This document shows, in pieces, positions 1 to 17,881 of a stretch of DNA of 64,000 bases. The DNA comes from Escherichia coli (GTDB lineage: Bacteria; Pseudomonadota; Gammaproteobacteria; Enterobacterales; Enterobacteriaceae). Positions within the stretch are counted from its first letter, which is position 1. Each line of letters starts with the position of its first letter. Both the position numbers and the translations under genes were made by a program. The DNA is taken from the NCBI RefSeq assembly GCF_003334385.1, contig NZ_QOWN01000006.1; one strand, given 5' to 3'. Under the pieces are notes generated by a model. It was not told the DNA's origin. It made no database searches and saw only the letters and a program-made list of their open reading frames with translations.

Positions 1-1164
1 TGGGCACCCATCCCTGCGGTCATCGCGGCGGGTATTCTCTCCACTTACTATTTTGGCATTACTGGCACCTTTTGGGCTGTCACGGGTGAATTTACCCGTT
101 GGGGCGGCCAGCTCCTGCAGCTGTTTGGCGTCCATGCTGAAGAGTGGGGTTATTTTAAAATTATCCATCTGGAAGGATCGCCATTAACCCGCATCGACGG
201 GATGATGATCCTCGGCATGTTTGGCGGCTGCTTTGCCGCAGCGCTGTGGGCCAACAATGTCAAACTGCGCATGCCACGCAGCCGTATCCGCATTATGCAG
301 GCCATTATTGGCGGTATTATCGCTGGTTTTGGCGCGCGTCTGGCAATGGGCTGTAACCTGGCGGCGTTCTTTACCGGTATTCCTCAGTTCTCGCTGCATG
401 CCTGGTTCTTTGCCATCGCCACTGCCATTGGTTCATGGTTTGGCGCACGCTTTACCCTGCTGCCCATCTTCCGTATTCCCGTGAAAATGCAGAAAGTTTC
501 TGCCGCCTCACCGCTGACGCAAAAACCGGATCAGGCGCGGCGTCGTTTTCGTCTCGGGATGCTGGTCTTTTTCGGCATGCTGGGCTGGGCGCTGCTCACG
601 GCGATGAACCAACCCAAACTGGGGCTGGCAATGCTGTTTGGCGTCGGCTTTGGTTTACTGATTGAACGTGCGCAAATCTGCTTTACTTCGGCGTTCCGCG
701 ATATGTGGATCACCGGACGTACCCACATGGCGAAAGCAATCATTATTGGTATGGCGGTGAGTGCCATCGGGATCTTCAGTTACGTACAGTTAGGTGTTGA
801 ACCCAAAATCATGTGGGCGGGACCAAACGCGGTAATTGGTGGTTTACTGTTTGGTTTTGGCATCGTGCTGGCAGGCGGCTGCGAAACCGGTTGGATGTAC
901 CGCGCGGTAGAAGGTCAGGTGCACTACTGGTGGGTCGGTCTGGGCAATGTGATCGGCTCAACCATTCTGGCGTATTACTGGGATGATTTCGCTCCGGCGC
1001 TGGCCACCGACTGGGACAAAATCAACCTGCTGAAAACCTTTGGCCCGATGGGTGGCCTGCTGGTGACATATTTGCTGTTGTTTACTGCGCTGATGTTGAT
1101 TATCGGCTGGGAAAAACGCTTCTTCCGCCGTGCGGCACCGCAGACTGCTAAGGAGATCGCATGA
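1..1164 (+). CDS. yedE: YedE-family inner membrane protein, 5' end truncated by window edge
   Basis: Frame 1 is open from position 1 to the stop at 1164; hydrophobic polytopic protein; position directly upstream of yedF as in E. coli. Confidence 0.8.
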   Translation, partial: WAPIPAVIAAGILSTYYFGITGTFWAVTGEFTRWGGQLLQLFGVHAEEWGYFKIIHLEGSPLTRIDGMMILGMFGGCFAAALWANNVKLRMPRSRIRIMQAIIGGIIAGFGARLAMGCNLAAFFTGIPQFSLHAWFFAIATAIGSWFGARFTLLPIFRIPVKMQKVSAASPLTQKPDQARRRFRLGMLVFFGMLGWALLTAMNQPKLGLAMLFGVGFGLLIERAQICFTSAFRDMWITGRTHMAKAIIIGMAVSAIGIFSYVQLGVEPKIMWAGPNAVIGGLLFGFGIVLAGGCETGWMYRAVEGQVHYWWVGLGNVIGSTILAYYWDDFAPALATDWDKINLLKTFGPMGGLLVTYLLLFTALMLIIGWEKRFFRRAAPQTAKEIA

Positions 1165-8253: not shown

Positions 8254-9377
8254 TTCGCTTAGCGCCCTTAATTACCGCCGACGTTGACACCACCACATTG
8301 CCTGGCGGCAAAGCCAGCGATGCTGCACAAGATTTTCTCGCGTTGTTGAGCGAAGCATTAGCAGGCGAGACAACTACCGACAAAGCGGCCCCCCAGTTGC
8401 TGGTGGCAACAGATAAGCCCACGACAAAAGGCGAGCCGCTGGTCAGCGAGATTCTTGCCGATGCGCAACAAGCGGATTTACTGATCCCTGTGGATGAAAC
8501 ACCGCCTGTCATCAACGACGAACAATCCACATCAACACCATTAACCACCGCTCAAACGATGACGATGGCTGCGGTGGCTGGCAACAATACGGCAAAAGAC
8601 GAAAAAGCGGATGATCTGAATGAAGACGTCACCGCAAGCCTGAGCGCCCTTTTTGCGATGTTGCCGGGTTTTGACAATACGCCCAAAGTGACTGATGTGC
8701 CGTCAACCGTGTTACCGGCAGAGAAACCAACGCTCTTCACAAAACTGACTTCTGCGCAACTCACAACAGCACAGCCTGATGATGCCCCCGGCACGCCAGC
8801 TCAGCCATTAACACCGCTGGTAGCAGAAGCCCAGAGTAAAGCGGAAGTCATCAGCACACCTTCACCGGTGACCGCTGCCGCCAGCCCGCTAATCACTTCA
8901 CACCAGACACAGCCACTGCCCACCGTCGCCGCGCCTGTGTTGAGTGCACCGCTGGGTTCTCACGAATGGCAACAATCATTAAGCCAGCATATTTCGCTGT
9001 TCACCCGCCAGGGGCAACAAAGTGCAGAGTTGCGTCTGCACCCGCAGGATTTAGGTGAAGTGCAAATCTCCCTCAAAGTGGATGATAACCAGGCGCAAAT
9101 CCAGATGGTTTCACCGCATCAACACGTACGCGCCGCCCTGGAAGCAGCGCTTCCGGTACTGCGAACGCAGCTGGCCGAAAGTGGCATTCAGTTAGGGCAA
9201 AGCAACATCAGTGGCGAAAGCTTTAGTGGTCAGCAGCAGGCCGCTTCCCAACAACAGCAAAGCCAACGCACAGTAAACCATGAACCTCTGGCGGGGGAAG
9301 ACGACGATACGCTTCCGGTTCCCGTCTCTTTACAAGGGCGTGTAACAGGCAACAGCGGCGTTGATATTTTCGCCTAA
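8250..9377 (+). CDS. fliK: Flagellar hook-length control protein FliK
   Basis: 375 aa, Pro/Thr/Ala/Gln-rich central region, conserved C-terminal domain; 4-nt overlap with fliJ. Confidence 0.9.
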
Positions 9378-9444
9378 CGTCAGAGATAGCACCGTAATCC
9401 GCGTCTTTTCCCCGCTTTGTTGCGCTCAAGACGCAGGATAATTA

Positions 9445-9452
9445 GCCGATAA
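9445..9452 (+). promoter_or_regulatory. Sigma28-like -10 element GCCGATAA upstream of fliL
   Basis: Exact GCCGATAA 30 bp upstream of fliL ATG with TCAA 15 nt further upstream (consensus TAAA-N15-GCCGATAA). Confidence 0.3.
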
Positions 9453-9481
9453 GCAGTAGCGACACAGGAAGACCGCAACAC

Positions 9482-9946
9482 ATGACTGATTACGCGATAA
9501 GCAAGAAAAGCAAGCGATCGCTTTGGATCCCGATTCTGGTATTCATTACCCTCGCGGCCTGTGCCAGCGCAGGTTACAGCTACTGGCATTCGCATCAGGT
9601 TGCCGCTGACGACAAAGCGCAGCAACGCGTCGTACCCTCCCCGGTCTTCTACGCGCTGGATACCTTCACGGTCAATTTGGGCGATGCGGATCGCGTGCTT
9701 TATATCGGCATAACCCTGCGCCTGAAAGATGAAGCTACCCGCTCGCGGCTGAGTGAGTATTTGCCGGAAGTCCGTAGCCGTTTGCTGTTACTGTTTTCGC
9801 GTCAGGATGCTGCCGTACTGGCGACAGAAGAAGGCAAGAAAAACCTGATTGCCGAGATTAAAACCACGCTTTCCACCCCGCTTGTTGCCGGGCAACCGAA
9901 ACAGGATGTCACCGACGTGCTGTATACCGCTTTTATTCTGCGATAA
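9482..9946 (+). CDS. fliL: Flagellar basal-body-associated protein FliL
   Basis: 154 aa with single N-terminal transmembrane segment. Confidence 0.9.
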
Positions 9947-9950
9947 CGAC

Positions 9951-10955
9951 ATGGGCGATAGTATTCTTTCTCAAGCTGAAATTGATGCGCTGTTGAATGG
10001 TGACAGCGAAGTCAAAGACGAACCGACAGCCAGTGTTAGCGGCGAAAGTGACATTCGTCCGTACGATCCGAATACCCAACGACGGGTTGTGCGCGAACGT
10101 TTGCAGGCGCTGGAAATCATTAATGAGCGCTTTGCCCGCCATTTTCGTATGGGGCTGTTCAACCTGCTGCGTCGTAGCCCGGATATAACCGTCGGGGCCA
10201 TCCGCATTCAGCCGTACCATGAATTTGCCCGCAACCTGCCGGTGCCGACCAACCTGAACCTTATCCATCTGAAACCGCTGCGCGGCACAGGGCTGGTGGT
10301 GTTTTCACCGAGTCTGGTGTTTATCGCCGTGGATAACCTGTTTGGCGGCGATGGACGCTTCCCGACCAAAGTGGAAGGTCGCGAGTTTACCCATACCGAA
10401 CAGCGCGTCATCAACCGCATGTTAAAGCTGGCGCTTGAAGGCTATAGCGACGCCTGGAAGGCGATTAATCCGCTGGAAGTTGAGTACGTGCGTTCGGAAA
10501 TGCAGGTGAAATTTACCAATATCACCACCTCGCCGAACGACATTGTGGTTAACACGCCGTTCCATGTGGAGATTGGCAACCTGACCGGCGAATTTAATAT
10601 CTGTCTGCCATTCAGCATGATCGAGCCGCTACGGGAATTGTTGGTTAACCCGCCGCTGGAAAACTCGCGTAATGAAGATCAGAACTGGCGCGATAACCTG
10701 GTGCGCCAGGTGCAGCATTCACAGCTGGAGCTGGTCGCCAACTTTGCCGATATCTCGCTACGCCTGTCGCAGATTTTAAAACTGAAACCCGGCGACGTCC
10801 TGCCGATAGAAAAACCCGATCGCATCATCGCCCATGTTGACGGCGTCCCGGTGCTGACCAGTCAGTACGGCACTCTCAACGGTCAGTATGCGTTACGGAT
10901 AGAACATTTGATTAACCCGATTTTAAATTCTCTGAACGAGGAACAGCCCAAATGA
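9951..10955 (+). CDS. fliM: Flagellar motor switch protein FliM
   Basis: 334 aa from MGDSILSQAEIDALL (ATG at 9951); ORF track start 9849 is an upstream extension overlapping fliL. Confidence 0.9.
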   Translation: MGDSILSQAEIDALLNGDSEVKDEPTASVSGESDIRPYDPNTQRRVVRERLQALEIINERFARHFRMGLFNLLRRSPDITVGAIRIQPYHEFARNLPVPTNLNLIHLKPLRGTGLVVFSPSLVFIAVDNLFGGDGRFPTKVEGREFTHTEQRVINRMLKLALEGYSDAWKAINPLEVEYVRSEMQVKFTNITTSPNDIVVNTPFHVEIGNLTGEFNICLPFSMIEPLRELLVNPPLENSRNEDQNWRDNLVRQVQHSQLELVANFADISLRLSQILKLKPGDVLPIEKPDRIIAHVDGVPVLTSQYGTLNGQYALRIEHLINPILNSLNEEQPK

Positions 10956-11365
10956 GTGACATGAATAATCCGGCCGATGACAACAACGGCGCAATGGACG
11001 ATCTGTGGGCTGAAGCGTTGAGCGAACAAAAATCAACCAGCAGCAAAAGCGCTGCCGACGCGGTGTTCCAGCAATTTGGCGGTGGTGATGTCAGCGGAAC
11101 GTTGCAGGATATCGACCTGATAATGGATATTCCGGTCAAGCTGACCGTCGAGCTGGGCCGTACGCGGATGACCATCAAAGAGCTGTTGCGTCTGACGCAA
11201 GGGTCCGTCGTGGCGCTGGACGGTCTGGCGGGCGAACCACTGGATATTCTGATCAACGGTTATTTAATCGCCCAGGGCGAAGTGGTGGTCGTTGCCGATA
11301 AATATGGCGTGCGGATCACCGATATCATTACTCCGTCTGAGCGAATGCGTCGCCTGAGCCGTTAG
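10952..11365 (+). CDS. fliN: Flagellar motor switch protein FliN
   Basis: 137 aa; 4-nt overlap with fliM. Confidence 0.95.
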   Translation: MSDMNNPADDNNGAMDDLWAEALSEQKSTSSKSAADAVFQQFGGGDVSGTLQDIDLIMDIPVKLTVELGRTRMTIKELLRLTQGSVVALDGLAGEPLDILINGYLIAQGEVVVVADKYGVRITDIITPSERMRRLSR

Positions 11366-11367
11366 TG

Positions 11368-11733
11368 ATGAATAACCACGCTACTGTGCAATCTTCCACG
11401 CCGGTTTCTGCTGCGCCACTGCTGCAGGTCAGCGGCGCACTCATCGCCATTATTGCCCTGATCCTCGCTGCTGCCTGGCTGGTAAAACGGTTGGGATTTG
11501 CCCCGAAACGCACTGGCGTTAACGGTCTGAAAATTAGCGCCAGTGCTTCGCTGGGCGCGCGTGAACGGGTTGTGGTGGTCGATGTGGAAGATACACGGCT
11601 GGTGCTCGGCGTTACCGCAGGGCAAATCAATCTGCTGCATAAACTTCCCCCTTCAGCACCAACAGAAGAGATACCGCAGACCGATTTTCAGTCGGTCATG
11701 AAAAATTTGCTTAAGCGTAGTGGGAGATCCTGA
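11368..11733 (+). CDS. fliO: Flagellar biosynthesis protein FliO
   Basis: 121 aa from ATG 11368 (MNNHATV); alternative GTG at 11365 overlaps the fliN stop. Confidence 0.8.
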
Positions 11734-12470
11734 TGCGTCGTTTGTTGTCTGTCGCACCTGTCCTTCTCTGGCTGGTTACGCCCCTCGCCTTCGCGCAACT
11801 GCCGGGTATCACCAGCCAGCCGCTGCCTGGCGGTGGACAAAGCTGGTCGCTCCCGGTGCAGACGCTGGTGTTCATCACCTCGTTGACGTTTATTCCGGCA
11901 ATTTTACTGATGATGACCAGTTTCACCCGCATCATCATTGTTTTTGGTTTATTGCGTAACGCGCTGGGAACGCCCTCCGCGCCACCTAACCAGGTATTGC
12001 TGGGGCTGGCACTATTTTTGACCTTTTTTATTATGTCACCGGTGATCGATAAAATTTATGTCGATGCGTACCAGCCATTCAGCGAAGAGAAAATATCAAT
12101 GCAGGAGGCGCTGGAAAAAGGGGCGCAGCCGCTACGTGAGTTTATGCTGCGTCAGACCCGTGAGGCAGATTTAGGGTTGTTTGCCAGACTAGCGAATACC
12201 GGCCCGTTGCAGGGACCTGAAGCCGTGCCGATGCGCATTTTGCTCCCGGCCTACGTGACCAGCGAGTTGAAAACCGCATTTCAGATAGGCTTCACGATTT
12301 TCATTCCTTTTTTGATTATCGACCTGGTGATTGCCAGCGTGTTGATGGCATTGGGGATGATGATGGTCCCCCCCGCCACCATTGCTCTGCCCTTTAAACT
12401 GATGCTGTTTGTACTGGTGGATGGTTGGCAATTGCTGGTCGGTTCGCTGGCGCAGAGCTTTTACAGCTAG
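11733..12470 (+). CDS. fliP: Flagellar export apparatus protein FliP
   Basis: 245 aa with signal-like N-terminus and conserved membrane core. Confidence 0.95.
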
Positions 12471-12479
12471 AGAGGCAAA

Positions 12480-12749
12480 ATGACACCTGAATCGGTCATG
12501 ATGATGGGGACTGAAGCGATGAAAGTCGCGCTGGCACTGGCTGCCCCGCTGTTGCTGGTGGCGCTGGTCACGGGCCTTATCATCAGTATTTTGCAGGCCG
12601 CCACCCAGATCAACGAAATGACGCTGTCGTTTATTCCAAAAATCATCGCCGTATTTATTGCCATTATTATTGCCGGACCGTGGATGCTCAATCTGTTGCT
12701 GGATTACGTCCGCACCTTGTTCACTAACCTGCCGTATATCATCGGGTAG
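12480..12749 (+). CDS. fliQ: Flagellar export apparatus protein FliQ
   Basis: 89 aa small hydrophobic protein. Confidence 0.95.
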
Positions 12750-12756
12750 CCGTACT

Positions 12757-13542
12757 ATGTTGCAGGTGACAAGCGAACAATGGCTATCCTGGTTAAGCCT
12801 CTACTTCTGGCCGTTACTGCGCGTGCTGGCGCTCATTTCTACCGCGCCAATTCTGAGCGAACGCAGCGTGCCGAAACGGGTAAAACTGGGTCTGGCAATG
12901 ATGATCACGTTCGCAATTGCCCCATCATTACCTGCCAACGATGTTCCTGTTTTTTCGTTCTTTGCTCTGTGGCTGGCCGTGCAGCAGATCCTGATCGGCA
13001 TTGCGCTTGGTTTTACCATGCAATTTGCCTTTGCCGCTGTGCGAACCGCTGGCGAAATTATCGGCCTGCAAATGGGGCTGTCATTTGCGACGTTTGTCGA
13101 TCCGGCCAGCCATCTCAATATGCCCGTTTTAGCGCGTATCATGGATATGCTGGCGTTATTGCTGTTCCTGACATTTAACGGTCATTTATGGTTAATTTCA
13201 CTGCTGGTCGATACCTTTCACACCCTGCCAATTGGTGGCGAACCGTTGAACAGCAATGCGTTTCTGGCACTCACCAAAGCAGGGAGTTTGATTTTCCTTA
13301 ACGGGCTGATGCTGGCGTTACCGCTCATTACTCTGCTGCTGACCCTGAATCTGGCATTAGGTTTACTGAATCGTATGGCCCCGCAATTATCCATTTTTGT
13401 TATTGGATTTCCATTAACTCTGACTGTCGGTATCTCTTTAATGGCGGCATTAATGCCGTTAATTGCGCCTTTTTGCGAACATTTATTCAGTGAAATTTTT
13501 AATTTGCTGGCTGATATTATTAGTGAATTGCCATTAATATAA
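12757..13542 (+). CDS. fliR: Flagellar export apparatus protein FliR
   Basis: 261 aa from [13 protein letters not shown] (ATG 12757); ORF track start 12658 is an extension overlapping fliQ. Confidence 0.9.
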
Positions 13543-13567
13543 TTCCGTAACGTTTATCATGTTATCC

Positions 13568-15356: not shown

Positions 15357-17881
<2,525 letters not shown>

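Follow-up and report, generated by a model that had tools for sequence, protein, structure and literature searches.

The sigma-28-like element upstream of fliL in the 64-kb stretch of Escherichia coli DNA analysed here (the window) is very probably the known secondary FliA (sigma-28) promoter of the E. coli fliLMNOPQR operon, interleaved with the primary FlhD4C2/sigma-70 class 2 promoter. Nothing in this identification is new: a sigma-28 promoter of fliL has been known since 1996 and is mapped by ChIP-seq, and we attach little weight to it as a discovery. The remaining interest lies in how strongly, and in which direction, FliA acts at fliL, for which the evidence divides into additive activation in reporter kinetics, a null effect of fliA deletion, and repression on FliA overexpression.

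The stop codon of fliK (TAA, 9375-9377) and the start codon of fliL (ATG, 9482-9484) are separated by an intergenic gap of 104 nt, read directly from the sequence. Gene names were taken from strain SCEC020022, which is 100% identical to the window over 9000-10000 and whose locus coordinates equal those of the window plus 1. Many complete E. coli genomes likewise match the kilobase around the site at 100% identity, with the genes annotated fliK, fliL and fliM. For comparison we assembled 67 fliL upstream regions, from 66 species-representative Enterobacterales genomes and the window itself, 65 of which could be aligned. The parts of the region are as follows.

9376-9419, plus strand: conserved block AACGTCAGAGATAGCACCGTAATCCGCGTCTTTTCCCCGCTTTG directly 3' of the fliK stop, where FlhD4C2 presumably binds at the class 2 promoter
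9426-9433, plus strand: sigma-28 -35-like element TCAAGACG (consensus TAAAGTTT, 4/8 matches), lying in the spacer of the sigma-70 promoter
9437-9442, plus strand: GATAAT, sigma-70 -10 hexamer of the FlhDC-dependent class 2 promoter, invariant in 65/65 alignable regions
9445-9452, plus strand: sigma-28 -10 element GCCGATAA, positions 20-27 of the published fliLMNOPQR FliA motif
9453-9481, plus strand: fliL 5' leader, with a Shine-Dalgarno sequence AGGAAG at 9466-9471
9482-13543, plus strand: fliLMNOPQR operon, from fliL (9482-9946) through fliR, from open reading frames and the annotation of strain SCEC020022

The -10 element is an exact match to the sigma-28 consensus. Its last A lies 29 nt from the fliL ATG, and TCAA (9426-9429) precedes it across a spacer of exactly 15 nt (9430-9444), in agreement with the original prediction, which had described an exact GCCGATAA about 30 bp upstream of fliL with TCAA 15 nt further upstream. 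The GATAAT hexamer sits between both sigma-28 elements.

The 28-mer TCAAGACGCAGGATAATTAGCCGATAAG, listed as the FliA ChIP-seq motif of fliLMNOPQR with a fold-above-threshold of 18 (Fitzgerald et al. 2014, Table 2, PMC4183435), is letter-for-letter the sequence at 9426-9453 of the window; the motif is the same, its position relative to fliL is the same, and the core shows no difference. K-12 MG1655, on which the published experiments were done, matches the window at every base between 9387 and the ATG; the sole difference in the fliK-fliL gap is at 9386 (A in the window, G in K-12). This base falls within the conserved presumed FlhDC-binding block, and it is G in every other genome of a ten-sequence alignment as well (CAGAGATAGC versus CAGAGGTAGC). 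The centre of the FliA ChIP peak maps to approximately 9467, 28 bp 3' of the motif centre, as at other FliA:RNAP sites. PMC4183435, citing Liu & Matsumura 1996, states that FliA is able to drive the operon, and fliL appears as a standard target of the FlhDC/FliA coherent feed-forward loop, whose logic is OR/SUM (Kalir 2005, as described in PMC2855527). It also serves as a class 2/3 reporter in PMC10578931, and goes unmentioned in Zhao 2007 (PMC1935009). The cautious suggestion made from the window, that the operon receives FliA input beside its class 2 promoter, is thus borne out by ChIP-seq on the identical 28-mer and by FliA-driven transcription.

As a pattern match, the fliL site beats chance but is surpassed by other sigma-28-like positions in the window. 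The octamer GCCGATAA is common by itself, with 8 copies in the 64-kb window versus 2.3 expected, a count of 8 being reached in 1 of 100 shuffles, whereas the composite TMAA-N15-GCCGATAA has a single match in the window versus 0.02 expected. A position weight matrix built from 24 published FliA sites (fold-above-threshold >4, fliL excluded) gives the fliL site 14.4 bits over -35 and -10 combined; this ranks 6th of approximately 128,000 window positions, with five positions outscoring it, and about 0.33 matches at 14.4 bits are expected per shuffled window. The score is unevenly divided. The -10 half contributes 11.8 bits, a value that falls among those of bound sites, and the -35 half 2.6 bits, versus approximately 8-12 in most class 3 promoters (tar, tsr, flgMN). 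Compared with TAAA(GTTT), TCAAGACG has the exact spacing and matches 3/4 positions in TAAA and 4/8 overall, and similarly weak -35 elements are present at two sites that FliA binds, those of fliA and flgKL (2.8 bits at flgKL).

The top match to the matrix, TAAATATGGCGTGCGGATCACCGATATC at 11299-11326 on the plus strand (18.2 bits), lies inside fliN in the sense orientation, and K-12 MG1655 has the identical sequence; Fitzgerald 2014 (Table 2, PMC4183435) lists no FliA ChIP-seq peak at this position. An exact GCCGATAA at 11294-11301 overlaps it and reads in frame as Ala-Asp-Lys. The further exact copies in the window are listed below.

1100-1107, minus strand: GCCGATAA, antisense within yedE
13058-13065, minus strand: GCCGATAA, antisense within fliR
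17252-17259, plus strand: GCCGATAA, antisense within dgcQ
29857-29864, minus strand: GCCGATAA
38640-38647, minus strand: GCCGATAA
48717-48724, minus strand: GCCGATAA

The excess of octamers probably reflects codon usage. We rejected its interpretation as several FliA sites: the other 7 copies have no TMAA -35 at the consensus spacing, the 4 copies examined are intragenic, and no other published ChIP peak falls in the interval. The abundance of GCCGATAA and the five higher matrix scores, including the fliN match that is conserved in K-12 and carries no published peak, might also suggest that the fliL element is a chance resemblance to which FliA does not bind at all. That reading is extremely improbable and is already refuted by the published ChIP-seq, in which a FliA peak at a fold-above-threshold of 18 falls on the exact sequence with the offset typical of holoenzyme (PMC4183435), and it is difficult to square with a composite pattern expected only 0.02 times per window. 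Sequence alone would not establish the function of this element; its position and the experiments do.

The second promoter in the gap was placed by conservation of GATAAT and not by the sigma-70 consensus scan, which does not locate it: between 9200 and 9600 the scan detected no complete sigma-70 promoter with a -35, as expected at an activator-dependent class 2 promoter. The 9376-9419 block is kept in nearly all of the 65 alignable upstream regions. Putative FlhDC half-sites were assigned within it from the FlhDC consensus (Stafford 2005). The hallmarks of class 2 found here are the invariant GATAAT, the lack of a usable -35, and, upstream, the conserved block with its published FlhDC peak and a putative match to the FlhDC consensus. 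The centre of the FlhD/FlhC ChIP-seq peak, at 2017573, is 28 bp 5' of the FliA motif centre at 2017601 (PMC4183435) and maps to approximately 9411 of the window, coinciding with the block. Fitzgerald 2014 likewise puts the sigma-70 promoter 5' of the FliA promoter (PMC4183435). From the usual spacing, sigma-70 transcription would start near A9449 and sigma-28 transcription near 9459-9461, about 7-9 nt past its -10; fliL is missing from the supplementary data of Kim 2012 (TSS profiling) and of Cho 2014 (sigma-factor network), so for both starts we infer the position.

Among other known promoters, that of fliAZY has the same interleaved layout. In both, GATAAT is followed after 2-3 nt by the sigma-28 -10 element (GATAAT-CAT-GCCGATAA at fliA, GATAAT-TA-GCCGATAA at fliL), the sigma-28 -35 is poor, and FlhDC and FliA both bind. 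The fliA site is more strongly occupied by FliA (fold-above-threshold 91 vs 18), and expression of fliA falls from 1257 to 15 in the fliA mutant, partly through the deletion itself, while fliL shows no change. Class 3 promoters (tar, tsr, motA, fliC, flgMN) have the -10 GCCGATAA and the -35 spacing in common with fliL; they differ from it in their strong -35 (TAAAGTTT, at approximately 8-12 bits vs 2.6), in FliA-dependent expression and in conservation across genera. The flgMN, flgKL and fliDST operons resemble fliL in that their transcription depends on both FlhDC and FliA, with a moderate effect of fliA deletion on the three. Their FliA promoters, however, are separate from the class 2 promoter, whereas that of fliL overlaps it; they reach wild-type output on FliA overexpression, whereas the output of fliL is the smallest; and they are conserved in Salmonella, whereas the fliL site is not.

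Published expression data show an input that is real and small, and whose sign is ambiguous. Mid-log RNA-seq in LB gives 989 for fliL in wild type vs 980 in a fliA deletion, a null effect that the authors ascribe to masking by the strong FlhDC/sigma-70 promoter (PMC4183435). Plasmid-borne fliA raises fliL RNA significantly but weakly in an flhD deletion, and lowers it 2.1-fold in a fliA deletion (PMC4183435). With lacZ fusions, no FliA-dependent activity was found at fliL, for which the authors again point to the strong sigma-70 promoter (10.1101/188474). The original prediction stands, both in its identification of the element and in its guarded claim of a FliA input. It had named unchanged fliL expression in a fliA mutant as one outcome that would count against it, and the mid-log data show just this outcome. 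That test is too blunt for a promoter overlapping a stronger one, and a fliA deletion is uninformative alone, since fliL does not change in it although the element is a genuine FliA site.

FliA-RNA polymerase binds the fliL site, as published ChIP-seq on the identical sequence shows. If the element is the secondary FliA promoter that we favour, this polymerase would start a transcript approximately 10 nt 3' of the sigma-70 start, taking both starts at their predicted positions. A weak FliA input would then be added to the FlhDC input on the operon, which corresponds to the OR/SUM feed-forward loop of Kalir and colleagues. The two promoters share approximately 30 bp, so two holoenzymes should be unable to occupy the site jointly, and with its poor -35 the Eσ28 holoenzyme would be a weak initiator at fliL. 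At native FliA levels the sigma-28 contribution would be masked; at high FliA, the stronger sigma-70 promoter could face competition from Eσ28. The FliA input at fliL is accordingly described here as weak, and possibly negative at high FliA.

Such competition could be the main effect of the site, with a poorly initiating FliA polymerase occluding the FlhDC/sigma-70 promoter so that late, high FliA lowers the C-ring and export-apparatus genes. We regard this as rather doubtful. It would account for the 2.1-fold decrease of fliL with FliA overexpressed in the fliA deletion and for fliL levels that stayed under wild type on FliA overexpression in both the flhD and the fliA deletion strains, and it fits a weak sigma-28 -35 and an arrangement in which the sigma-28 -35 and -10 flank the sigma-70 -10 within 27 bp, making joint occupancy implausible. 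This interpretation must be tempered by the fact that repression is seen only with plasmid overexpression. Deletion of fliA does not raise fliL (989 vs 980), which leaves no sign of braking at native FliA levels; FliA overexpression without FlhDC raises fliL; and the input in Kalir 2005, as described in PMC2855527, is positive and additive.

Conservation of the sigma-28 elements is limited. An exact GCCGATAA occurs in 9/67 upstream regions, namely the window, 2 E. coli, 1 Escherichia sp., E. albertii, E. whittamii and 3 members of the C. amalonaticus group, and so the fliL site lies outside the core class 3 promoter set, which is conserved across Enterobacteriaceae. The -35-like TCAAGACG, which makes up nt 1-8 of the FliA motif as published, is not kept outside Escherichia. 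At 9448, 38% of the regions retain the G of the CGA core, and all four bases are found there; variants at the GCCGATAA position include GCCCATAA in C. sedlakii, GCCAATAA in C. koseri and GCCTATAA in Escherichia sp. ESNIH1, and the sigma-28 motif is absent from the Enterobacter fliL upstream regions. This lineage pattern matches published work, in which fliLMNOPQR has the sole flagellar FliA promoter whose sequence is not conserved, and in which that promoter is unbound by FliA in S. Typhimurium (10.1101/188474). Our own scan of genome contigs with FliL and a protein search returned no Salmonella locus. Within E. coli, the 50-nt core (9416-9465) is 100% identical in 5076/5172 genomes.

The ATAAGC flanking the variable base and the remainder of the leader are conserved, and the sigma-28 -10 looks like a one-base variant of a leader conserved for other reasons. 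On this comparison, a G at the freely varying position 9448 completes GCCGATAA in Escherichia and the C. amalonaticus group as a lineage-limited variant. The leader segment 9450-9471 (TAAGCAGTAGCGACACAGGAAG) lies in a block, TAAGCnGTAcCGAaACAGGAAG, that is conserved across many genera even where the sigma-28 motif is missing. Conservation of this block may reflect constraints from translation initiation, or a regulator or sRNA target that has gone unrecognised. An Rfam scan of 9200-9700 at a permissive threshold found no family in the leader, and two sub-threshold matches to eukaryotic snoRNA families were rejected as chance.

Two anomalies were encountered in the comparison set. Buttiauxella agrestis and B. 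massiliensis (L024 and L054) lack both GATAAT and the FlhDC-box block and have unrelated sequence upstream of fliL, suggesting either a rearrangement or an additional set of flagellar genes; the usual layout is found in another B. agrestis assembly (L042). The record titled Chryseobacterium sp. 18061 (L018) has a fliL upstream region identical to that of Citrobacter sp. 18056 (L014) and is probably mislabelled, or derives from a contaminated assembly from the same study.

The restricted distribution raises the question of whether the site has been selected at all. It could be a near-neutral match produced by drift within a conserved leader, bound by FliA in the manner of dozens of intragenic sites and serving no selected function. 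Its confinement to Escherichia and the C. amalonaticus group, the free variation at the core G, its status as the only non-conserved flagellar FliA promoter, unbound in Salmonella (10.1101/188474), the unchanged fliL expression in the fliA deletion, and the many E. coli FliA sites without detectable regulatory output (PMC4183435) are all in keeping with this. We nevertheless judge it unlikely, as the element has measurable promoter capacity in the absence of FlhDC, and FliA is required for the delay in fliL shut-off (Kalir 2005, as described in PMC2855527). Every Escherichia species sampled, E. albertii and E. whittamii among them, also has the site, and 98% of E. coli genomes are 100% identical over it, which short divergence times make a comparison of little power. 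For the secondary FliA promoter itself, the lack of conservation and of FliA binding in S. Typhimurium argue against an important conserved role.

A further proposal combines the negative sign with the recent origin. The site would be a young, Escherichia-specific device arising from one base change (the G at 9448), its main role being negative feedback through occlusion of the class 2 promoter by Eσ28. The chances of this being correct are, in our estimate, low. Negative feedback was raised earlier as speculation by Fitzgerald et al. 2014 (PMC4183435), and only the single-base evolutionary origin is added here. If the proposal were true, high FliA would shut off synthesis of the C-ring and export gate, and the textbook reading of fliL as a coherent feed-forward target would be reversed. 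What is at stake at this locus is whether the textbook fliL feed-forward loop is a selected function of E. coli or a weak, recently arisen side-promoter.
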